Assembly: GCA_038087875.1 (NCBI GenBank)
Contig: JAXLNO010003753.1
Span: 1-57,648, forward strand
DNA length: 57,648 nucleotides
Source: Malacoraja senta
Taxonomy: Eukaryota
Reading direction: 5' to 3'
Every line of letters starts with the position of its first letter. Positions within the stretch are counted from its first letter, which is position 1. Below are positions 21,433 through 37,743 of this stretch, in pieces. The notes below the pieces were generated by a model. The model was not told where the DNA came from. It made no database searches and was given only the letters and a program-made list of their open reading frames with translations. The position numbers and the translations under genes are program-made.

Positions 21433-21973
21433 TGTGAGAAAGGGGTTAATAGGTATAAGTTGATTTAGACAAGAACCCTTTGTATAGTAGGGAGTATAGT
21501 AGGGAGGATAGGGGGAGTGAAGAACGAGTACAGATGGTGACTTTTTCAAGGATGAGAACCGAGAAGATAGCAACAGCCCAGCCAAGAACTAGGGTAAGGG
21601 TCAGGAGAAACACTCAGTGCGCATAGGCAATGAACTTACATGAATATGTACACACACCCACTATGACAAGATGTCTCATTTAAATGCACATGCGATGCAT
21701 GATATGGGAGGTGTCTTTGACGTCGGGTGGACGTTCCAGGACGTTCTCGTGGGAATGTGGGCTTTATGTTATGATTGGAAGAAGCACAATGGGGAGGGAT
21801 GAGGGTGTGACAGTGATACCCATGAAATGTATAAAGATAGAAGTCATCCCGATCCTCGGTGTGCCTCTAGGGGACATCAGAGGAGAGGCACCTATTCTGC
21901 AGAATATGATTTGAATAAAAAGCTTCTTTGCTGACTTTGTCTCTAAAAGCGTTTGTGATTTTTGAATCTCACA
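21433..21973 (+). repeat. ERV-B 5' LTR
   Basis: TATA-like tataaa and AATAAA in order; 4 substitutions counted by eye against the 3' LTR. Confidence 0.95.
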
Positions 21974-21978
21974 ATTTT

Positions 21979-21996
21979 TGGGGGCTCGTCTCGGGA
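21979..21996 (+). promoter_or_regulatory. Primer binding site, tRNA-Pro
   Basis: tgggggctcgtctcggga versus canonical TGGGGGCTCGTCCGGGAT. Confidence 0.9.
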
Positions 21997-22319
21997 CCCC
22001 CACTCCGGCTGGCTGACGACGGTATACGGAAGAAAGGACGGTGCACCCCGTTGATTTCAGCGGTCCCAGACCCCTAGATTGTCGTCAGCGGTTTGGGCGA
22101 GTGGTATCCCTGAACAGAGACTCAGCAAAGAAGTGGGAGTAGTTGGAAATCCGATCGGGAGGAAGATCGGGGGGAAAATCGCGAGGGAGCCAAATCGAGT
22201 GATTCTTGTGCACAGGACCCGGGTAAGAAAACTGACTATTAAGTACTACTCGGGCGATTTATAGATCTGAGGTAAACAGATCGGGGGCAAACAGATCGGG
22301 GGGAAATTCCGATCGGGAG

Positions 22320-24520
22320 GATGGGCCATGAGAACGGAAAGCCCACCAGGGAGGGGAAGGGCGGTAAGCCCGACCCCAGCATTCTGCCTGATAGTCCGTT
22401 GGGGCGAATGCTGAGCCTCTGGTGGCAGGGAAATACCCAGGGAATTGGAAGACAAAAATGATTTGATTCTGTTATTTTGAGTTTTAATACATGTAAAAGA
22501 TGTTGCATTTATTTGAAGTAAGAATGGAACGAATGTGATTTGTGTGTAAAAACCAGTTTGGAATGAAAGAGGAAGTTTATATATGTGATAATTATTTTGT
22601 TTATTGTATTTGTAGACCACATTGTAAGAGTAAGTAAGTAAGTTTTATTAAAATCAAAAATGTTCACTGTAGGTAGGTGTATGTTCCTTTAAATAAATCA
22701 GGTCATGGTGAAAGGCGACGAACAGCTGTAAGATAATGATTAATTGTTTGTTGGCCTTAACCTAGAAGGGGAAGTTGTGAAACCAGCTTTTGTTTTTTCT
22801 GATGTTCTTTTAGATTTCTAGTCAGTAAAGATAATTTGGAGAATTGTTACTAGTGCTAGGAATTGGACATTTAAAATAGTGGTGAATATGGATTGAAATA
22901 ATTGGAAATAAGTTAATTGGTAAACATTCAAGTTTAGAAAGAAAGGAGAGAGAGGCAGTTAGAAGATAACAGAAGTAGAAAAACGACAGGCATGAAAGTA
23001 ATAAAGCAGGAGGAGTCAGTGGAAGATTTTTGCAAGGAGGCTAGAATATTTGAGAAGCAAGAAATTGAGTTTAGAATTAGAAAGAAGGCATACCAGAAAG
23101 GATTAAAGTTGGAAGCATTGGGATAAAGTGATGAGACTGCTTTAAAGAGAAAAGAGAAGGACAGACACGGATTATCCCTTGGGGCACCCATAAACTGAAA
23201 GGGCTAAAAAATACCTCACCCTATATCCCTGATGGGGGAGGAAATGGATTAGGGCTTTGGAGGAGGAGAACGTGGGACGATTATTGATCATGGAAGATTT
23301 GAAGGCACTGTTGGTAAAAGTGATAGGAAGCACTAAAGCGACAGAACTACTGAAGATGGATGGTATAAACTGATGCGAACAATGTAACAAGCAATGGCAT
23401 ACTGTTTGACACAGTCAGGCAGAGGGTATGGCAGACCCTCAGACCCCCAAGGAACAAGGGGAGATACAGAAGGAAAGGCAAATAGCCTATCTGGAAAACC
23501 AGCTGAAAAGGTGGAGAGTTGATTGATGAACATTATATTATGAACAACTGTGGTGGATGTCATTCTTCTTAAAGTCAAGCAGATTCAGCGAACAGTTGGT
23601 CTCTGCGGTCGAGAAATATCGCAAAGATAGGAAAAAGACTTGCAAACCAGCAGGAGGAGGTGTTGTCAATAAACAATGGACCTAAGTGAGTCCTATGACG
23701 GAACCAAGCAGGGCCAGAGAATTACATGCCAATAATGAATGTCTTTGGGGAACGTTTCCTCAAAAAGTCCTATCAGGAGTGAAATTAATCTGGATATAAG
23801 CCCTAACAGGACTGGGGTCCCCAAGAGAGAAAGGGATTTAAAGGAGGATTTGTTGGTATTGTTCCATAAGTAACAAGCGATGTAAGAGAGAGAGAGAGAT
23901 TTAAAAAAAAAATACTTCAGAATGTAGGACAGAGTATGATAACCTCAGGAAAAGGCAGGATATAGTTCAGACTAGATTAGGTATAAGCCCTGTAGTGTCG
24001 TTTATGATGAATAAGGTAATTAAGAGGTTTGGTAGACCTACAGAAACCGGCTTTGACAACGGATTGTTTTCATTTAGGGAGTAGCTAAGTTGGCGATAGA
24101 GACCCTTAGAGTAAAATACACATTTGGGTATGTAAGAATAAATGGAACATTGAAGGTTAATATAAATAAGATTTGTTTAATTACAAAGTTGAATTGGATC
24201 GATGCCCTGCCATTGGCACTGAAGAGATGTTGCATGCAAACTAACCGAGCAGGTGGCACAATGGAGAGGTCCCTACAAGAGACCGAGTTTGGAACAGTTA
24301 AAGATAGAATTTAAAAAGTATATGAAACAGTTAATTATGATATACAAGTCTATTTATGAACAGGAAAAGTAAAAGCTGTTGGAGGTGGACCAGGAGGAAG
24401 GACCCTTTAAACCTGAAGACAAGGTGTATGTATGAGTTTTCTAAACTACCGGCCGATGTTCAGGTAGAAGGTTGATATACCTGGTACCATTTCAATAATA
24501 CCTGAGGGCTGTCCCGCAGG
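22320..24520 (+). pseudogene. Highly degraded gag and integrase remnants of ERV-B
   Basis: MA-like PDSPLGRMLSLW (~22390); integrase core NGTLKVNINKICLITKLNWIDALPLAL (~24140-24220); integrase C-terminus PFKPEDKVYV...VQVEG.YTWYH (~24400-24490). Many stop codons. Confidence 0.7.
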
Positions 24521-24599
24521 TACGAATAGATAATAGCCCTGAGGTAAGTGAACAGGAGGACAAGAGATGTGAGAAAAGAGTAGAATTTGAACAAGAACG

Positions 24600-25525
24600 T
24601 TGTTTGACATCAGTGGTGGGCAAAATAATGGAAAGGATACTTAAGACAATATATAAGAATAGGGTAGGATTAGGAAGAATTAGCATGGATTTGTGATTGT
24701 GATGTTTGACTAATCTTGAATTTTTTGAAAAGGTTATTAGGGAAATTGATGAGGGTAAAGTGATGGATGTTGTCTAGATGAACTTCAGTAAGGCCTTTGA
24801 CAAGGTTCAATAAGGAAATAAGGTTGGTTAAGAAGGGTTAGTAAGGAATAGCAAGATGGAGTAAAAAGTGGCTGTATGGGAGATGTCAGAGAGCAATGGT
24901 GGATGGATGTTTGTCAGGTTGGAGGTCAGTGACTAGAAGGGTACCTCGGGGATGTGTGTTGGGTCCACTGTTGTTTGTCATGTGAATCAATAATCTGGAT
25001 GTTGGTGTGGTAAAATAGATTAATAAGTATGTAGATGATACTAAGATAGGTGGTGTTGTGAATAATGAAGTAGATTTTAAAAAGTGTACAGAGAGATTTA
25101 GGTCATTTGGAAGAATGGGTTGAAACATGACAGATAGGTTTAATGTTGATAAGTGTGAGATGATACATCTTGGCAGGACAAATCAAAATTGAATGTACAT
25201 GGTAAATGATTGTGAATTGAGGAATGAAGTTGAACAGGCGGATCTAGGAATAACTGTGCATGGTTCCCTGAAGGTGGAATTTCATGAAGATAGGATGGTA
25301 AAGAAAGATTTTGGTGTGTTGGCCTTTATAAATCAGAGCATTAAATTGTACAAGGTATTGGTGAGGTCAATTGTGGAGTATGGTGTATAATTTTGGTAGG
25401 CATAATTATAGGAAGGATGTCAACAAAATAGAGAGAGTACAGAGGAGATCAATTAGAATGTTGACTGGGTTTCAGCAACTAAGACACAGAGAAAGGTTGA
25501 ACAAGTTAGGTCTTTATTATTTAGG
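24600..25525 (+). mobile_element. CR1 RT fragment embedded inside ERV-B
   Basis: Decayed F.KAFDKV, G.P.G.VLGPLLFV and Y.DDTKIGGVV, and the IERVQRR..RML C-terminal region. No CR1 3' tail is visible. Confidence 0.8.
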
Positions 25526-25559
25526 AACGATAGAAGGGGTCCCAACAAATACAAGGGAA

Positions 25560-25917
25560 TGATGTATTCCTAAGGAACTATTTACTGGCAGTATCTCGTT
25601 CTATTACAGAATTAAGAACCAAGGGGCTGCTGGCACAGAGTCCCCATCTCGACTTTCCAATCCATTCTGTGAAAGCGGGGGACTGGGATCTTTTAACATC
25701 ATGGAAGGAAGAAAAGCTGCAACCTAAGTGGACTGGACCCTACCTGGTGTTACTAATCACCGAGACAGCAGTACGAACAAAAGAAAAAGGGTGGACACAC
25801 GCAAGCCGATTTAAGGGTCCTGTGGAGGCCCCACCAAACAATATCAGCCCGTGGACTGTGCGCAAAGGAGAGGAACCATTGACTTTAATATTTAACAAGA
25901 ACCCGCGGGAAAAATGA
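25560..25917 (+). pseudogene. pol: Second integrase C-terminus (3' end of pol)
   Basis: ELRTKGLLAQSPHLDFPIHSVKAGDW...PKWTGPYLVLLITETAVRTKEKGWTHASRFK, containing the GPY/F module. Confidence 0.85.
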
Positions 25918-26760
25918 AGATTTCGTGTTGGTGGGTCGTGTGTTGGGTGGTTACCCAACTATGTAAGCATACAGAGTGTTCAAATGCAGGAAAGTGGAAG
26001 GATGTGCAGATAGGGAGAATGAGCCTAAGGATTTGAAGATAATGATAGTAGCAGGAGAAACAGAATTAAGGCAATTATATGAGGAGGGAATACCTACAGG
26101 AGGGAAGGGAGCCAACACCTGGCTTGCCTGGATGATGTACATGGCCAGGAGTATGCAACACACCAATTGCTACGCCTGTGCCGGAGCTAAGCCTCAGCTG
26201 GTTCCAGAACCATTTCCCTTGAATTGGGATAGGACACCTGGGGCTATGTCATGTATACTACAGCTATTCACGAATCCCATCCTACCAAAGGATGCGACCT
26301 GCCAGAGTTATCATCACCTATTCCCGGCTAGCAACAACAATACAAAGGGCCGAAGGACAGCCCCTTCGACACACACATATATATAGATGCGATAGGGGTG
26401 CCAAGAGGGGTATTCGATGAATTCAAAGCCAGAAACCAGATAGCTGCGGGCTTTGAGTCCATACTCTTCTGGTGGTCCACACTTAATAAAAATGTGGACT
26501 GGATCAACTACCTATACTACAATCAACAACGCTTTATAAATTACACTCGAGATGCGGTTGAAGGATTAGCGGAACAACTGACAGATACCAGCCTAATGGC
26601 CTGGCAAAATCGCATGGCCTTAGACATGCTACTGGCTGAGAAGGGAGGGGTGTGTGTAATGTTTGGGGAACAATGTTGCACCTTCATCCCCAACAACACT
26701 GCTCCTGATGGGTCAGTGTCGAGAGCCCTAGCAGGTCTCACCTCCCTGTCTATCGAATGA
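25914..26760 (+). pseudogene. env: env remnant (frameshifted, SU internally deleted, TM truncated before the membrane anchor)
   Basis: Signal-like MKISCWWVVCWVV; SU NTWLAWM...NCYAC; TM YIDAIGVPRG...FKARNQIAAGFES, ISD QNRMALDMLLAEKGGVC and CX6CC (CVMFGEQCC); stop at 26758-26760. Confidence 0.9.
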
Positions 26761-26858
26761 GAGGAAGATAGGGAGAGGCGAGGATTCTGCTGCTAGCATT
26801 AGAGAAGGGGCAGATAGTCTAAATCAAAGATTGCAGTAGCAAAAGTAAAAGTGTGGAT

Positions 26859-27399
26859 TGTGAGAAAGGGGTTAATAGGTATAAGTTGATTTAGACAAGA
26901 ACCCTTTGTATAGTAGGGAGTATAGTAGGGAGGATAGGGGGAGTGAAGAACGAGTACAGATGGTGACTTTTTCAAGGATGAGAACCGAGAAGATAGCAAC
27001 AGCCCAGCCAAGAACTAGGGTAAGGGTCAGGAGAAACACTCAGTGCGCATAGGCAATGAACTTACATGAATATGTACACACACCCACTATGACAAGACGT
27101 CTCATTTAAATGCACAAGCGATGCATGATATGGGAGGTGTCTTTGACGTCGGGTGGACGTCCCAGGACGTTCTCGTGGGAATGTGGGCTTTATGTTATGA
27201 TTGGAAGAAGCACAATGGGGAGGGATGAGGGTGTGACAATGATACCCATGAAATGTATAAAGATAGAAGTCATCCCGATCCTCGGTGTGCCTCTAGGGGA
27301 CATCAGAGGAGAGGCACCTATTCTGCAGAATATGATTTGAATAAAAAGCTTCTTTGCTGACTTTGTCTCTAAAAGCGTTTGTGATTTTTGAATCTCACA
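26859..27399 (+). repeat. ERV-B 3' LTR
   Basis: 541-bp direct repeat of 21433-21973. Confidence 0.95.
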
Positions 27400-27678
27400 G
27401 TGATGTTTCGGAACGAGACCCTTTTTCAGACTGAGAGTCAGGGGAAAGGGAAATTATCTATAGATGGTGATAGAGAAATATAGAACAAATGAATGAAAGT
27501 TATACAACAAATCGATGCATTTTAAATCGATTACTCAGGAAGGATACAAGTCACATTTACCACTCTGACGGTGACACAAAAACATCTAGGCTTTGCAAGT
27601 AAGGCAATTTGTAATGGGATTATTCGTTTAATTAAAGCAAAAGTGTTTTGCATACTTCTGGCAGGAGTATTTTGTGGT

Positions 27679-29386
27679 ATTATCAGATGCTTGTAATCAT
27701 GGGAAATATTAATGCAGTTTGTCACCCTTGTTTGCATGCAATTCTACAGTAGTTTTTAATGTCCAATGTTCCAATGACAGTCTAGAGTTGTCTACGACTT
27801 GTGTCTGAGTCCTGTCATTGGTTGGAATGACCAGTACCTAAAACCAAGCATTCCACATCACCTCATCAGTGGAATCAATGCTACACTGCACGGTGTGCTA
27901 CCTTAGCAACGGAGCAGGAACAGTAACCCAGCTCTCACCTCTAGAATTCCATGTAAACTAAATGGTACAATTATATGGGGGATGTTGGGACAGAGACCGC
28001 TGCAGATGTACAAAGGCAATTTTTAACAATTGCAGAACAAGTTGGTTGAGTAGTCAGTTTAAAAAAGGAACACCGAACCTTTGGAACAGAGAAGCAAAGT
28101 ATAAAAGCAAGGTATGCTACGTTTTTACAAATCTCTTCTGCACAAGTCTGCATTAAACAGCAAGAATGGTATCAAGATGAAAGGTTTCACTTACATGAAA
28201 AATCCAAAGAAAGTGGGATTGTCGTGCTTAGAGAAGGTTAAAAGGAGAGTTCATAGATCAGTCAGGTACATACGGTTCTTGCCAAAGGCATAAAGGTTTC
28301 CAACCAAGGGATACTGATTTACTGAAAAAGAATCAAGGCAATACTTTTGATCTATTACGTGAAATAGCCAGGCATGTGTAAAGTATGCCTGGGAATCGCG
28401 AGACAATCCATTAATGACTTTGCTTGCCAGATTATAATTCATTCTTCATTACAGAAACTAAACAAGCATATGGCAAATTTGTTGTGCAGATCATCTAATT
28501 GAGGTATAGAAAAGTATTTATGGCACAGAATATAATTTTATATTCAGGAGGGAGGGACGGAATGCTGAGGCGCAACAAATTTGCCATATGCTTGTTTAGT
28601 TTCTGTAATGAAGAATGAATTATAATCTGGCAAGCAAAGTCATTAATGGATTGTCTCGCGATTCCCAGGCATACTTTACACATGCCTGGCTATTTCACGT
28701 AATAGATCAAAAGTATTGCCTTGATTCTTTTTCACTAAATCAGTATCCCTTGGTTGGAAACTTTTATGCCTTTGGCAAGAACCGTATGTACCTGACTGAT
28801 CTATGAACACTCCTTTTAACTTTCTCTAAGCACGACAATCCCACTTTCGTTGGATTTTTCATGTAAGTGAAACCTTTCATCTTGATACCATTCTTGCTGT
28901 TTAATGCAGTCGAGCAGACTTGTGCAGAAGAGATTTGTAAAAACGTAGCATACCTTGCTTTTATTCTTTGCTTCTCTGTTCCAAAGGCTCGGTGTTCCTT
29001 TTTTAAACTGACTACTCAACCAACTTGTTCTGCAATTGTTAAAAATTGCCTTTGTACATCTGCAGCGGTCTCTGTCCCAACATCCCCCATATAATTGTAC
29101 CATTTAGTTTACATGGAATTCTAGAGGTGAGAGCTGGGTTACTGTTCCTGCTCCATTGCTAAGGTAGCACACCGTGCAGTGTAGCATTGATTCCACTGAT
29201 GAGGTGATGTGGAATGCTTGGTTTTAGGTACTGGTCATTCCAACCAATGACAGGACTCAGACACAAGTCGTAGACAACTCTAGACTGTCATTGGAACATT
29301 GGACATTAAAAACGACTGTAGAATTGCATGTAAACATGGGTGACAAACTGCATTAATATTTCCCATGGTTACAAGCATCTGATAAT
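27679..29386. repeat. Long inverted repeat (fold-back) of unidentified sequence
   Basis: Arms ~27679-28487 and ~28570-29386 are reverse complements, with roughly a dozen substitutions and one 8-bp indel; spacer ~80 bp. Confidence 0.92.
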
Positions 29387-29532
29387 GTAGATCAGTGCAT
29401 GCTCCTTTAACATAGTGACCTCTCTAGCTCCGGTGACGGACCACGAACAGCTAGGGCACTATGTGTGTGTATGATTACAATGTCTGCAATAAACTAGTAG
29501 TGAAGACATCACGTGTCTGACAAGTCTTTACA
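29386..29532 (+). mobile_element. Gypsy element 5' LTR (147 bp)
   Basis: TGTAGA...TTTACA with an internal AATAAA, immediately followed by a PBS. Confidence 0.85.
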
Positions 29533-29562
29533 TGGTGTCAGAAGTGGGATTCGAACCCACGC
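29533..29562 (+). promoter_or_regulatory. PBS tRNA-Leu(CAA), extended to 30 nt
   Basis: tggtgtcagaagtgggattcgaacccacgc is the reverse complement of the vertebrate tRNA-Leu(CAA) 3' end including CCA and the T-arm (tRNA sequence from memory). Confidence 0.9.
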
Positions 29563-29569
29563 TTTGATA

Positions 29570-32438
29570 GCTGATCCCTCAGTGCGAGTTACTGTGAATG
29601 GGATGACCTTACCTGCAAAGGTCGACACGGGGGCGTTTGCCAATGTTATGTCATTAAGCCTCTTTGAGCAGATAAGATCTGGTGAGAAGGTTACTGCCGA
29701 CGACTCTCGTCTTCATGCCTATGGGGGGGGGGGTGCTCGTACCAGTCGGGAAGGCAACCCTTATCTGCACAGTTCTGAAGACCTCTCGGCCGCTCTCTTT
29801 CCTCCTGCTGGAATCTGAGAATGTTACTCTTTTGGGCGCCAGTGCGTGCCAGGACCTCGGTTTGGTTTCCTTCCACCGCGATATCCACCTGGTGCAGGGC
29901 CCCATGGACCCCATGAACGAGTACCCTGATCGTTTTGACGATGTATTGGGCAAACTACCCTTCAATTACGAATTCGATGTGGACCCGGGGGTTGTTCCGG
30001 TAATCCGCCCGGCTCACCGCGTCTCCTTTGCCATGAAGGACAGGGTGGAGTCGCCTCTGCGCCACATGGTGGCCGTGGGCATCATCAAGGAGGTGAGTGA
30101 TCCCACCCGGTGGGTCTCCACCGTGGTCGTTGCTGCTAAGAAGGACAAGAGTGAGATTCGGACCTGTATAAACCCCAAGGACCTGAACCCCAAGCGCCCG
30201 CACTACCCCATGCGAACGGTGGAGGACGTCGCTGCACAGGTTGGCCCAGCCACTGTCTTCTCTGTCCTCGATGCCAAGAGCTCTTTCTGGCAGATTCCAC
30301 TGGATGAACGTTCCTCCTTCCTGACCACTTTCGGTACACCTTTCGGCAGGTTCCGTTTCCTCCGCATGCCTTTCGGGATCAATTCTGCCAGCGAGGTTTT
30401 CCAGCGCACCATGGAGCAGCTATTTGCCAGTCTGCCGTGTGCTATCATCGTCGATGACATCTTAGTGTACGGGAGAGACGTCGCTGAGCACCACCTCCAC
30501 CTCCGCCTAGTCCTGGATAGGGCTCGTGAGATCAACCTCAAACTGAACCCCAAAAAGTGCCGTTTCCGCGTCCCGGAGGTCACATACGTGGGCCACGTTT
30601 TCACGGCTGAGGGTCTGAAACCAGACCCACAGAAGACAGCTGCGGTCTCTGGGATGCCAGCTCCGGTCGACGTGCCCAGCCTGCAGCGCTTCTTGGGCAT
30701 GGTGAACTACCTGGGGAAATTCATTCCCGACCTCAGCGAGCTGAGTGCGCCCCTGAGGGAACTGACCAAGAAGGACACTGCCTGGGTTTGGTACCCGCAG
30801 CATCAGGCAGCCTTCGATGCCCTGAAGTCCCGGCTGGTTTGCACCCCCACTCTCAAGTTCTTCGACTTAAAGCGCCCCATCGTCCTCACCTGCGATGCCT
30901 CGAATTTCGGTCTCGGTGCTGCCTGCCTGCCTGCAACTCTACGACCGCCTGCAACTACCTGTCTCCTACGCTTCCCGCACCATGACCCCTGCCGAACAAC
31001 GCTACGCTCAGATCGAGAAGGAGCTCCTTGCCGTGGTGTTTGCCTGCTCGAAGTTCAAGGACTACATTCTGGGTAACACCTTCACTATTGTGACCGACCA
31101 CCAGCCGCTGGTCACGATCTTGAACAAACCAATCCACGTTGCCTCTTCCCATTTGCAGCGTATGATGCTGCAGCTTCAGCGCTTCACGTTTCGAATCGTG
31201 TACCGAAAGGGCAAGGACATGTTTGTGGCCGACACGCTGTCCCGCGCACCGCTGGCGTCTACTGCCCGCCACCCGTACGAGTCGTCCGACCTAATGGTGC
31301 TAAACGTTAACTTTGTGCCTTCCGGCAGATGCAGTCCCTGATTCAGCACACTGCCATGATCCTGCCCTGCAACAGCTTGTAGACGTCATCCGCTCGGCTG
31401 GCCTGACCGTCACTCATCCTTGCTGGCTGGTGCTGCGCCCTACTTCCTAGTCCGGGATGAACTTGTGCTGCATGACGGCGTGGTGGTGAAGGGCCACAAG
31501 ATTGTGGTGCCTGCTGCGCTGCGGGACCACTATTCCAAACTGCCCACAGCAGCCATCCGGAGCCGATGCCACCTGTCCCGGCCCAGAGCCAATTTTATTG
31601 GCCCGGCATGGCACAGGACATCCGGGATATGGTCTCCGCCTGCTCAACCTGCAATACCCTCTCTCTCCCCCACCAGAAACGCCAGCCACTCCTGCAACAG
31701 CCTGCCCCCGACGGCGTGGATGGCGGTCGCTACTGACATATTTGAGTGGAGTGGCAACATTTCCTGGTCCTTGTAGACTCCTATTCCAGCTGGTTCGAGG
31801 TGGATCAGCTGCACTCCCTCACTTCTGCTGCTGTCATTGGGAAGCTGCGCCGCAACTTTGGGATCTTTGGCCCTCCTGTGACTTTGCAGTCTGACAACGG
31901 CGGCCAGTTCTCGAGTGCGGAGTTCCGCGCCTTCGCTGCCGCCTGGAACTTTCGCCACATCACCAGCAGCCCTGAGTACCCGCAGAGCAACGGCCTTGCT
32001 GAGCGCGCCGTCCGCAGTGCCAAGGAGCTGTTGGAGCAGTGTAGACTATCGCATTCGGATTTTTACCTGGCCCTACTGAATCTCCGCAATATTTCTCGTG
32101 ACCCTGCCCTAGGCTCGCCTGCTCAGCGGCTCATGTCCCGCACCACACGCCCTCCGATCCCTGTCTCCAGCGATCCTAGAGCCCGCGGTCCGCAGCCCTG
32201 CTGCTGTCCAGAAGCGCATTGCCCAGAAACAGACTATCCAGAAGCACTCCCACGACAAATCCTGCCGTCCCCTTCCGCGTCTCTTCCAGGGCCAGGTCGT
32301 CCGGATGCAGTCCTCCTCAGGACACTACCGGCTGGCTGTTGTCGTCGGCTCTGCAGACTCCCCGCGGTCTTACCTGGTTGACTACAGGGTGCCACCTACC
32401 GCCAGTCCCGCCAGCATTTGCTGCCGGTCAACGAGCGA
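29570..32438 (+). pseudogene. pol: Gypsy/Ty3 pol (PR-RT-RH-IN), frameshifted, gag absent, 3' truncated
   Basis: VDTGA protease; LDAKSSFWQI, RMPFGI and IVDDIL RT; CDAS and YAQIEKELLA RNase H; LQSDNGGQF and PQSNGLAERAVR integrase. A frameshift lies in the G run at ~29722. Confidence 0.92.
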
Positions 32439-32439
32439 G

Positions 32440-35400
32440 CACTTCAGCAATACTAGTCTAAAAATATGGACTTAGAAAACAGAAGCCGTCATTTGAATTT
32501 ACGAATTGTTGGTTTGCCGGAAGGCCAAGAAGGAGATAACGGTATAAAATATGCTTCTAAAATGATAAAGGAAACATTCAACATTGAGCACAATGAAAAC
32601 CTTCCGTTCCTGGATAACGCACACAGGATTGGGAAGAAATCCGGTAATAAACCGAGACACTTGATCATTCGGTTTCATTTTTTTCAAATGAAGAAGAATA
32701 TTCTCCAGGCAACAAAATATGAAGGATGTAAGTTTCGGTTTGTCCCTGATTATAGTTATGAGCTTTTGGAAATAAGAAAGACTTTTTATAATGTAATGTC
32801 TGATTTGTATAAGAAAAAACTGCGCCCAGCTCTATTATTTCCAGCTAGATTGCGTATTCGGCTTTTCAATGGTAACTTTCGATTTTTTAACAGTCCTCAA
32901 GACGCCTCCAGCTGCATCTGAAGAGCTACGACGAGGAAGGGGAGTAATTGATAGCTGATTAAGTTATAATTGGAGATTTACTGTTCCTATTTTGACAACA
33001 TTTCGTTTGGTAATGATTAAGAATTTAACTGGACAAGTTGTTTTTCTTTTATATATATTCTTTTAAGAATTTCTTTGTTAATTCGTGTTCCCCTGTCGTT
33101 AGACAAACTAAGAGAACGCAGTTCTTGTTTTTCATATTTTGACCTTGGATAATAATAAGCCGCATTCCATGCCAGTCTGTATTTTTTTCCCTTCTCTCTC
33201 AAAGAGATAATAACAAATGTGTTATGACATAGTGGTTAAATATTATTCTTTTTATGCTGAGCGCTGTTACTGGGAGAGATGGGATTGGGGAGATTAGGTA
33301 GTTTGCTGACTGTCTCTTGGTCAGTTTGGGGTTCTACAGGGGTGGGAGGGGGGAGGGGGGGGGGGGGGGGGGAGGGGTCTTTTGTTCCCTATTTAGTGAT
33401 CTCCATTTGTGCAAATTCTGAACTACAAAATTGGCTGAAATGTCGTCACTTCTGGCTCCGCCCTAGATTTTTCTTCTTCCAGTATTATGAACTTTTAGGC
33501 TTCAAGAAATTAACCCATTACATCCCACATGATTTTTTACAAGCAATATGGATAAAGTTACTAATTTCTTTTCATGGAATGTGAATGGCTTGAACCATCC
33601 CATTAAGAGGAATTTTTTTTTTAAAGTTCTTCACAGACTAAATGCTCAGATTATCTTTGTTCAGGAAACTCATGTAAGGCAAGATGACAAGTCACGATTT
33701 TTCAAGTTTTGGAGAGGACAGCAGTTTCATTCAAATTCACAGGCCAAGGTGAAAGGAGTCTCTATTTTTATTGACTCCTCAATTCCGTTTGTTCACCATG
33801 AAAGAATTTCTGATCCATATGGCAGATTCTTGGTGATTACCAGTGTCCTTTATAGGTAAAAAGTCATATGGTGAATGTCTATGCAGCAAATATTGATCAC
33901 CCTGAGTTTTTTAAACAGTTAATTGCATCCTTTCCTAATTTAAATGAACACTTTTTAATAATGGGTGGAGACTTCAATTGCTGTTTGAATCCCTCGATTG
34001 ATAGGTCTACATCTGATCATGTGCTTCCAAATAAATCAGCTAATTTTATTAATTCTTTTTTACTTGACTCGGGAATGTTAGAAATTTGGAGATTCTTACA
34101 CGCAAATGACAAAGAATTTTCATTTTTCTCTCATGTATATCATAGTTATTCTAGGATCGACTATTTTATACTAGATTCTCGGCTAGTTCCATTCGTCATT
34201 GCATGTGAGTATGATACAATTGCTATTTCTGATCATGCACCAGTGAAACTATTGATCAAACTACCTGATTCCAAGTTTAGTGCTAAACAATGGCGATTTA
34301 ATGCTACTTTGCTTCAAGACTTAAACTTTATTAAGTTTATGAAAGATCAGATTGCTTTTTACTTCTTGACAAACTCTAATGAAGAGATATCCAATGGTAT
34401 ACTTTGGGATGCTTTTAAGGCATATATTCGTGGACAAATTATTTCATACTCCGCGGGATTAAAAAAACAAACACAAAAAGAAATACGCACGTTGGCTGAC
34501 GAGATTAAAGAAATTGATAAAAAATATTCAAAAGCTAGTTTAGAGCTCTATAAGAATAGAGTTGAACTTCAATTGAGATATGATTTGTTATTAGTATCAC
34601 CGATTGAGAACCAGTTACTTAAAACCAAAAGTCAATTTTATATAAATGGTGAAAAATCTGGTAAATTACTTCCTAATCAATTGAAGCAGTGTTGGCCAAG
34701 CGTCAGATTACAAAAGTGTGTAAACGGGATGGTACAGTAACTGTAGACCATGACGAACTTAATAAATCCTTTCAGGAATTTTATACCTCCCTATACCAAT
34801 CAGATTTTCCTACTGATTCCAATATAATGCATGAGTTTTTAAAGAAACTGAACTTACCAAATTTACCATACAATGAGTCTCTGTTGTTAGATGAACCCAT
34901 CACGGAAGTAATACAGAAAGCAATTTTGTCAATGAATTCTGGTAAAGCTCCCGGTTTAGATGGGTTTACAGTAGAATTTTTAAAGCATTTCTCAAATTTA
35001 TTGTCTCCATGGCTATGCAAGGTATTTAAAGAAGCCTTTTTAAGGAATAGATTACCACAATCTTTTTATGAAGCATCTATTTCTTTAATTTAAAAAAAGA
35101 TAGACCCTACTGAAGTGACATCATATAGACCTATATCACTGTTAAAAGTAGATTTTAAAATTCTTTCCAAAATATTAGCTATGAGATTGGAAAAGATTTT
35201 ACCGCAAATTATCTCTGAAGATCAGACAGGTTTTATTAAAAATCGTTACTCATTCTTTAATGTTAGGAGATTAATAAATATTGTATATACAGCGTCTAAT
35301 AAAACCCCAGAAAGTGTCATCTCACTTGATGCCGAGAAGGCTATTGATAGAGTAGAATGGAATACTTATTCAAAATACTTGAAAAAGTTAAGATTGGTCC

Positions 35401-37743
35401 AAAATTTATCTCTTGGATCAAACTGATATATCTTAAACCTCAGGCTTCTGTATTTACTAATAATCAGAGATCCCCTTTTTTCAGGCTCTTTCAAGGTACT
35501 AGACAGGGCTGTCCCTTAAGTCCTTTACTATTTGATATTGCTTTGGAACCTTTAGCCACTGCTATTAGGGAATCCCCTAATATTTTTGGTATTGTCCGCG
35601 GGAATAAGACACATAAGCTATCTCTTTATGCAGATGATCTGTTATTATTTATTTCTATCCCTGAGAAATCTATTCCTGCAATAGTAGCATTACTTAATCA
35701 ATTCAGTAGTTTTTCTGGTTATAAACTAAATCTTAGTAAGAGTGAGCTTTCCCATTATATAATTTTGTTTCGAGTTATGGACAGTTTCCATTTAGATTGA
35801 CTACCGAAAGTTTTACTTATTTAGGTATTAAGATCACCAAGAAACACAAGGATTTATTTAAAGCTAATTTTATTCCTTTAATTGACCATATTAAACATCA
35901 GTTCACTAAATGGTCACCAATGTCCTTATCCTTAATTGGCCGAATCAATGCTATTAAAATGTTCATTTTACCTAAATTTCTGTATTTATTTCAGACGATA
36001 CCAATTTTTATTGCCAAATCTTTCTTTGATATTATAGACTCTAAAATTTCTTCATATATATGGCAGAATAAAAATGCCAGACTAGGTAAAAAATACCTAC
36101 AGAAATCAAAAAAAGTTGGTGGTTTGGCATTGCCGAACCTTAGACTATACTATTGGGCAGTCAATGTTCGTTATTTAACATTTTGGACAAAAGATTTAGA
36201 AGATACCCAATGCCCTGGATGGATAAACCTAGAACGTGATTCCTTACAAGGGCTATAATTGGCTTCTATTCTAGGGACCTCGTTACCTTTTACAATTACG
36301 AGATTGAATAAATATATGATGAACCCAATAATAAGACATACGTTCCGAATACGGTTTCAATTTCATAAGTTTTTTGGACTATCTGATTTTATCCAAATTT
36401 CTCTTCCAACCATCTAGTACTGATCAAGTTTTTTTGTTATGGAAGAGGAAGGGATTAGTAGCTTTTCGTGATTTGTTTTTGGAGTGTTGTTTTATGTCTT
36501 TCGAACAACTCTCCAATAAATATAACTTACCTAATTCACACTTTTTTAGATATTTACAAATTAGACAAAAGGAACTACCTCTTTTTCCGCTACCACATCA
36601 ACCCGAAATTTTGGATTTTTTTTTACAGTTGAACCCTTATCAGAAAGGATTAATAACGACTATTCATGAGTTGATTTTAAAATTACAAATAGATACATTT
36701 GATTAAATTAAGAATGACTGGGAAAGAGAACTCCAAATTTCTTTATCTATAGAGAAATGGGAGAGGATCCTTCAATTAGTTAATACCTCTTCAATGTGTG
36801 CAAGACACACTTTGATACAATTCAAGGTGGTTCACAGAGCTCATATGTCAAAAGATAAGTTAGCTCGTTTTTATGGTCATATAAATCCTACCTGTGACAG
36901 ATGTAACTCTGAAGTGGCATCACTGACCCATATGTTTTGGTCCTGCCCTCTTTTGGAAAAATATTGGAAATACATTTTTGATACTATTTCGGTAGTCTTA
37001 GGTATAGATTTACAACCTCATCCTATTACTGCAATTTTTGGGTTACCAATGTTAGATTCTATTCATTTGTCCCACTCCGCCCATCGGTTGATTGCTTTTA
37101 CCACATTAATTGCCAGAAGATTTATTTTCATTAAATGGAAAGATTCCAACCCTCCGACCACACTCCAGTGGTATTCTGAAACGATATCATGTTTAAATTT
37201 AGAAAAAATCAGAAGTGACATTGTTGAACCCTTGGTTAAATTTGATAAGACTTGGGGAAAATTTATTGAACACTTTCATACAACATAAATTGTTCCCTCT
37301 TTAACCATTATAAAACATATTTTACCTTCATAGAGTGGAACGGACTTGACGACAAACTGTTGAATTTCTCAGTTCAGATTCGGGTTTGCTCTGTTTTGTT
37401 TTAATTATTTATTTTATTTTATTATTATCCAATTTTTTTAATTTTTTTTTAGTTTAGGGGGGTTTTGTTTTTTGTTTTTCTTTTTGTCTTTTTATCTTTG
37501 CTTTTTTTTTACATTTATGTTTCCTTTTAAAGATTTAACTACATTTACATAAAGACCGAGAGGTCTATATTCATTGTGTATTTTGACACTGGTCTCATAT
37601 TAGGTTATTATTAATGTGTTTAATCCTGATCCCTATGTATCAATACCATTGTTATGTTTGTCATTATTCTTTTTGCTCTGTTTTTTATGTTTTATTTTTG
37701 TTTTTGTTTTTTGGAAAAAAAACAATAAAAAGATTTTAAAAGA
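32440..37743 (+). mobile_element. L1-clade LINE, nearly full length, disrupted
   Basis: ORF1 3' half 32466-32921 (LENRSRHLNLRIVGLPEG...AHRIG...PARLRI). ORF2 33548-37288 in pieces: WNVNGL and QETH endonuclease, GGDFN, SDH, YRPISLL, GTRQGCPLSP, LYADD, and C-terminal CDRC...HMFWSC. T-rich 3' UTR with AATAAA. Confidence 0.95.

Follow-up and report, generated by a model that had tools for sequence, protein, structure and literature searches.

Probable copying of a leucine tRNA primer beyond m1A58 in an internally deleted Gypsy element and at hundreds of germline sites of Malacoraja senta

Errors of plus-strand transfer are known from early vector studies, as is cloned viral DNA carrying tRNA inserts. 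The closest described case is that of HIV-1, where 44 defective proviruses contain tRNA-Lys3 inserts that Hardy et al. (2025, PMC12657518) ascribe to aberrant second-strand transfer; in the accessible part of that paper the tRNA copy runs 7–54 nt past the primer site, and a change at position 58, found in 5 of the 44, is treated as a mutation and not as misreading of m1A. HIV-1 plus-strand strong-stop synthesis halts at m1A58, with minor stops at 54, 55 and 37 (PMC8599865, PMC13191261). Ty1 and Ty3 have bipartite primer sites, and their progeny mostly retain the element's own site (PMC5371799, PMC7472051); the first tRNA-tailed strong-stop DNA of Ty3 is regarded as a dead-end product (PMC5371799). 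The window analysed here, an entire 57.6-kb contig from the 1.94-Gb genome of M. senta, holds a Gypsy copy arranged like the HIV-1 proviruses: LTR, primer site, extra tRNA copy, then a deletion junction, the tRNA complement after the 5′ LTR being longer than 18 nt and itself forming that junction. The HIV-1 cases are somatic lentiviral proviruses with an 18-nt site, whereas here germline Gypsy elements are involved, at about 480 sites in one genome; compared with what the available text reports for HIV-1, the share of errors opposite A58 is far higher, there are marks at G37, and the parental site is short and in two parts.

The copy lies on the forward strand and opens with a 147-nt 5′ LTR with TG...CA ends (29386–29532), which lacks 64 nt of the 211-nt family LTR. 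Positions 29533–29562 are the antisense of the 3′-terminal 30 nt of a tRNA-Leu (CAA or CAG) in its mature form, comprising the complement of the CCA tail (29533–29535), the acceptor strand, the entire T-arm and the first bases of the variable region. The position opposite A58 (29551) carries the correct T. The final GC (29561–29562) belongs to tRNA and element alike, matching parent positions 1204–1205, so that 28 nt are tRNA-only. The tRNA match ends at 29563, where the tRNA genes go on into the variable arm, and the end of gag with a pol remnant (protease, RT, RNase H and integrase, split among several reading frames) occupies 29563–32436. Relative to the parent, the copy has lost positions 212–1203, that is, the leader and nearly all of gag (about 990 nt). 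The protease motif VTVNGMTLPAKVDTGA begins at 29588, and the protease region matched Pfam Asp_protease_2 with an E value of 2e-4, under Pfam's cut-off. A 5′-truncated L1-type element (32437–37300, right end approximate) stands in place of the 3′ end and 3′ LTR.

The sequence-only reading had proposed a 30-nt match to tRNA-Leu(CAA) directly after the LTR and a jump from there to protease without gag. The match is present as described, through the whole T-arm, and tRNA-Leu is the right tRNA, but CAA and CAG are inseparable over 30 nt. Protease is indeed near; the last gag codons remain, and the leader is gone too. The microhomology sought near 29562 exists as the 2-nt GC. The match also holds beyond 18 nt against real tRNA-Leu genes: nt 4–30 show zero mismatches to the CAA gene L141, which contains a 31-nt intron, and to the CAG genes L101 and L102, and one base differs in the remaining five of the eight tRNA-Leu gene loci. 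In the shuffled window an 18-nt match with at most three mismatches is expected 0.04 times by chance. An Rfam scan of 27000–36000 found no tRNA and gave one hairpin match, on an inverted repeat.

We therefore read the window copy, with a probability of roughly 0.86, as a defective Gypsy element whose RT copied its tRNA-Leu primer past m1A58 and re-primed downstream, with deletion of leader and gag. The copying is placed in plus-strand synthesis because minus-strand switching onto the tRNA would leave the tRNA in the sense orientation, and the copy is antisense with CCA. Alternatively, a tRNA gene or tRNA-derived repeat might have donated the tRNA piece at the DNA level, through recombination or repair, which would suit a copy that has no target duplication and sits in a rearranged, repeat-rich contig. 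However, CCA is encoded in none of the eight tRNA-Leu gene loci examined, long copies elsewhere in the genome are spliced, all 30 sampled inserts start exactly at an LTR-like end (CA in 29, CG in 1) and target duplications are intact in most such copies, which makes a DNA-level origin extremely improbable.

Contigs L022 and L023 carry the identical junction, the identical 5′ flank and the same 64-nt gap in the 5′ LTR; they diverge from the window by 1.3–1.7%, and both keep the 3′ end and 3′ LTR. Since junction and flank recur in them, the junction is a single event that was duplicated later, and not a contig error. The insertion site is a multicopy host repeat (28490–29385), which also flanks L022 and L023, and the insertion point was vacant in 13 of 13 other fetched copies of this repeat. 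The LTR gap, at 29420, is flanked by short CTC repeats and, in all three duplicates, confined to the 5′ LTR; it could be a product of the same plus-strand synthesis. The event has no target duplication, because the 3′ flank of L022 and L023 is unrelated to the 5′ flank; together with the LTR gap and the lost 3′ end, this indicates that later rearrangement touched the window copy. The idea of a chimera, raised by a GGCTG flank common to L022/L023 and L195/L196, was ruled out, as the flanks diverge after 7 nt. None of the contigs of four public runs spanned the junction, which is uninformative either way; in runs X2 and X3 many contigs depart from the window sequence at 29562 and continue as tRNA. 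Microhomology of at least 2 nt, as at the window junction, is expected in 17% of cases under the null. With the correct base opposite A58 and a mere 2 nt of microhomology, the history of the window copy has to be read from the population.

The neighbourhood of the copy holds other repeats. A retrovirus-like element at 21433–27158 has two direct repeats of about 300 nt, 99% alike and 5.4 kb apart, and contains an env fragment at 26332–26760 (Pfam TLV_coat, E 2e-8). Positions 27679–29386 form an inverted repeat with arms of about 810 nt (98–99%) and an 82-nt spacer; its hairpin gave the MIR6140 hit. Each arm is a copy of a host repeat that is young and multicopy, for which the best 40 of 268 candidates were scored, all at about 99% and all on small contigs, some as inverted pairs about 7 kb apart.

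To identify the parent, we searched the genome with 29386–29800, scored the best 40 of 2931 candidates and fetched 20 regions. Three of those 40 align end to end, and the others only from 29561 onward. Full-length family copies measure 4.73 kb. They have 5-bp target duplications and LTRs of 211 nt, and a frame of about 390 codons bearing Cys/His clusters reads on into protease; a Pfam search of two full-length copies matched no gag family. Judged by sequence features, namely the pol order of protease, RT, RNase H and integrase, paired TG...CA LTRs and a primer site, the family can be classed as a Ty3/Gypsy LTR retrotransposon; in the Atlas its RT fell into generic RVT_1 clusters only. A Leu/Ser primer, a 5-bp duplication, a short LTR and a length of 4.5–5 kb are Mag-type traits, and they offer a lead towards a Mag-like placement. 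Mag-lineage Ty3/Gypsy elements tabulated for Culex (PMC3286476) are alike in their length of about 4.7 kb, LTR of about 210 nt, 5-bp duplication, tRNA-Leu primer and single frame for gag and pol; the accessible part of that paper mentions neither a two-part site nor read-through copies.

The primer site of the family consists of about 8 nt of tRNA match (16 copies, one of which, L038, is partly tRNA-like), and its short form occurs at 139 sites genome-wide. A 5-bp target duplication was found in 25 of 25 short-site copies with both LTRs, and the family has a purine tract. Could the long match instead be an ancestral primer site of the family, with gag lost from the window copy by an ordinary later deletion? 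The normal leader does contain a second tRNA-complementary box and some T-arm-like letters, six sites genome-wide join a long tRNA copy to the leader in register, and the window copy bears further post-insertion damage. Against this, the long match is absent from all 16 further family copies in which both 5′ LTR and leader are present, the leader is not kept at any of 38 long-match family junctions, and insert lengths and position-58 bases vary between copies. We regard an ancestral long site as highly improbable.

The read-through that we prefer for the window copy recurs throughout the genome. An LTR-type CA followed by an exact match to the 18 nt of tRNA was found at 1281 sites genome-wide, and 483 of these LTR-end sites extend to tRNA nt 27; the corresponding controls gave 0 in both cases. 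These counts contain segmental duplicates and are incompletely de-duplicated. Sixty sampled loci fell into 25 LTR-end clusters with differing junctions, which puts the number of LTR types at 25 or more, and in 30 sampled loci the jump came after 23–50 nt of tRNA, into varied places. The proposal that read-through and an aberrant second strand transfer explain the gag loss is supported, with the window copy as one of hundreds of such sites. Taken alone, the locus does not stand out within this large class, and the finding is the class itself.

We mapped the junctions of the window's own family in 99 loci, taken from 100 listed among 182 matches, and removed repeats before counting. Where at least 22 nt of tRNA were present, 0 of 38 mapped junctions rejoined the leader correctly, as against 7 of 29 with 16–21 nt; 19 further loci had a 13-nt match, mostly the normal site of a sister subfamily, and three had no parent hit. 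Landings were on the opposite strand in 14 of 67 cases, and 25 involved a second jump or a short insert. For the 35 ectopic junctions that were direct, the mean overlap was 2.8 nt, compared with 0.70 under a two-sided null, and 24 of the 35 had an overlap of at least 2 nt (17% under the null). A 5-bp target duplication was present in 24 of 27 read-through copies with both LTRs (10 more were unscorable), the window event being among the three without. The LTRs diverge by 1.0% in read-through copies and by 1.2% in normal ones. Normal target duplications and similar LTR divergence show these to be integrase products made alongside normal copies.

Some copies have unusual structures. L114, L255 and L256 fold back onto their own tRNA copy, L114 as a head-to-head LTR–tRNA palindrome. 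In L074, L076, L077, L081, L100 and L156 the 18-nt stop is followed by an identical 5–6 nt and then a second jump; the added nucleotides match the tRNA variable loop or a site in the RT gene (window 30375–30385) that shares GGGAT with the strong-stop end. In L093 and L229 the read-through copy landed directly in the 3′ LTR, leaving a 461-nt gene-less element with a target duplication, and this jump is a one-step route to a TRIM-like structure. Helenus TRIMs likewise have tRNA-derived sequence within an LTR retroelement (PMC10886601, as far as the available text goes), but there the tRNA-like part is inside the LTRs, promoter-like and inherited, whereas here an antisense copy of the primer lies outside the LTR and is a one-off.

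We then analysed the bases copied from the tRNA. A pattern that left nt 13–23 free gave 490 matches, of which the first 100 listed were counted by hand. Opposite A58 these had T in 59, A in 27, C in 12 and G in 2, i.e. the wrong base in 41 of 100, while eight other non-CpG positions of the same 100 had 8 changes in 800 (1%). Genome-wide, 179 sites in unrelated LTR types have a wrong base there. All eight tRNA-Leu gene loci found have A58; just three of them are CAA. RTs are known to leave a misincorporation signature at m1A (PMC4787781). Stops peaked at 18, 34–35 and 47–50 nt; one of the samples behind these peaks is biased towards long and mismatched copies by its mode of collection. Among the 39 non-gene copies extending as far as nt 49, about 34 terminate at nt 49–52, adjoining G37; five copies pass G37, all of them spliced, without the intron, and four of the five misread it. 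Isolated misreadings were seen at C34 in L046 and at G26 in L147, in single copies. In human or zebrafish tRNA, m1G37 (in Leu-CAA), m2,2G26 and modified C34 have been reported. The mature state of the template is seen in the CCA of the window copy and, in the population, in splicing and position-specific errors. Since A58 is misread, G37 is misread or stops synthesis, and the intron is absent, the template was likely a modified, spliced tRNA.

It is less probable that hypomodified tRNA was the sole source of read-through, with the A58 variation due to variant tRNA genes or later mutation. Unmodified tRNA could account for the correct base at 59 of the 100 listed sites, HIV-1 is known to show read-through once m1A58 is lost (PMC8599865, PMC13191261), and few tRNA genes were found, so unassembled tRNA-Leu genes with other bases may exist beside the three CAA loci. 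Yet three different wrong bases occur at one non-CpG position in many LTR types, at 41% compared with 1% nearby among the 100 listed sites, wrong A58 bases also occur in other organisms (18 of 51 redundant contigs), the eight gene loci are uniform, and G37 shows a like pattern; we find this explanation quite unlikely. The data instead point to bypass of m1A58 as a main read-through route, with the wrong base inserted in about 35–40%. The sequence-only reading had left it at an unmodified or bypassed A58: bypass is indicated in the population, while the window copy, with its correct T at 29551, cannot separate unmodified tRNA from correct bypass.

Further variation was observed at nt 36 from the tRNA 3′ end, just beyond the stop peak at 35: 72 copies had A in 32, T in 21, G in 15 and C in 4, so that 79% are unlike the three CAA loci; the gene loci found have G. 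This reflects either unassembled isodecoders or an unrecorded variable-loop modification. m3C47d is given for Leu-CAG and Ser only in the accessible parts of two reports (10.1101/2024.01.30.575011, PMC9072684). As other organisms have a fixed, different base at nt 36, unassembled isodecoders are as likely as m3C.

As described for HIV-1, synthesis mostly stopped after 18 nt (the read-through pattern is absent from about 800 of the 1281 sites), with a further stop at 37; in samples able to show it there is no 54/55 peak here, and a variable-arm peak occurs instead. The 18-nt norm assumed in the sequence-only reading thus holds for the stop, but not for the primer site of the family, which is about 8 nt plus a box. 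The pattern of an LTR end, a 7-nt site, 10–18 free nt and CGYCTCC was found at 1554 sites, compared with 3 in the control. This second box complements the tRNA variable arm, in its 3′ strand, and positions 48–50. Spacers between site and box are diverse (18 kinds in 29 loci), and the box is constant. Its two variable positions are those at which G–U pairing with the tRNA allows change, although they are equally well simple transitions; variants that would break pairing occurred at 5 and 8 sites. Co-folding gave a modest gain: in all 18 leaders, which come from related families, the real box scored above the average of its 40 shuffles, by about 1–7 kcal/mol, and 0–12 shuffles per leader were equal or better. 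A search for a family primed by another Leu tRNA, for a covariation comparison, found none (7 hits).

As in Ty1 and Ty3, a short 5′ site is thus combined with a second segment complementary to the same tRNA; the segment here differs from the published descriptions in its place, about 13–15 nt downstream, and in the part of the tRNA to which it is complementary, namely the long variable arm with positions 48–50. It might be argued that these elements ordinarily read through as far as the variable arm and that the box, like the primer over-extension sequence of lentiviruses, serves as a landing pad, since the main stop at tRNA nt 34–35 coincides with the end of the box. But in-register landings number 6 compared with 483 read-through sites, so that, in contrast to the lentiviral sequence as described, the box is rarely a landing site; in addition, parents retain divergent spacers that such a pathway would overwrite. 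We rejected the landing-pad role on the former ground and consider the pathway very unlikely.

Copying past m1A58 followed by ectopic re-priming, the reading we favour, can be set out as follows. At initiation the second box would pair with the variable arm of the tRNA. In plus-strand synthesis the element's RT would copy the leucine tRNA primer beyond the usual m1A58 stop, mismatches arising from m1A58 and m1G37. As in Ty1 and Ty3, the primer site passed on would normally be the parent's own short one, and the first tRNA-tailed strong-stop DNA would normally be a dead end. Its unpaired 3′ tail could not pair with the 8-nt site; microhomology may sometimes rescue it by letting it prime on the minus strand, or else on the opposite one, as the 14 of 67 opposite-strand landings suggest. 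That the site is about 8 nt plus a box, and not 18 nt, is the likely reason why tRNA-tailed DNA transfers go astray. In the window copy the tRNA-tailed end would have re-primed about 990 nt downstream on the 2-nt match, deleting leader and gag before integration; the mismatched duplex would then have been integrated, its resolution leaving the plus-strand version. What the published account of Ty3 treats as a dead end, the tRNA-tailed product, is found integrated here.

Other organisms carry the same fossils, as read-through matches were also found in metagenome contigs: 51, many of them redundant, with T in 33, A in 16 and C in 2 opposite A58; Gypsy pol homology lay downstream in 7 of 49 contigs. 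A generic pattern for other primers gave 20 hits compared with 7 in controls, of which 6 were worn Leu-CAA/CAG copies, 2 were clear copies of another Leu tRNA and the others were repeat-like or chance; since the pattern requires the site to abut the LTR, it does not show other primers to be spared. In the two clear copies, L268 and L276, an LTR-like end is followed by read-through of that other leucine tRNA, which in L268 enters the anticodon arm, and alternative primer use is possible in them. In the full-text literature searched, which includes few subscription journals and little older retrovirology, we found no report of germline Gypsy read-through copies, of modification imprints in such copies or of the variable-arm box. 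The same type of error is thus already known from HIV-1 proviruses, and the germline Gypsy scale, the modification imprint and the variable-arm box appear new relative to the literature searched.

The in vivo tightness of the m1A58 stop, and the question whether tRNA must be unmodified for read-through, have mostly been matters for in vitro and HIV-1 work; they now have a countable genomic record, in which roughly 480 of 1280 tRNA-derived junctions are read through and about a third of these misread position 58. Such copies are a major source of internally deleted LTR elements, usually ascribed to minus-strand switching or host recombination. They also call for caution in annotation, as the 18-nt sites used for such families are often primer copies and not the parental site. 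On balance we lean towards a wider picture, in which a widespread animal Gypsy group grips tRNA-Leu by its acceptor end and long variable arm, the short site leads to frequent microhomology rescue, and hundreds of germline tRNA-Leu cDNA reads have been fixed, whose errors and stops would form a datable map of modification (m1A58, m1G37, m2,2G26, modified C34 and an unrecorded variable-loop modification). The variable-arm box may also account for the preference of Mag-like elements for Leu and Ser tRNAs, both of which have long variable arms.
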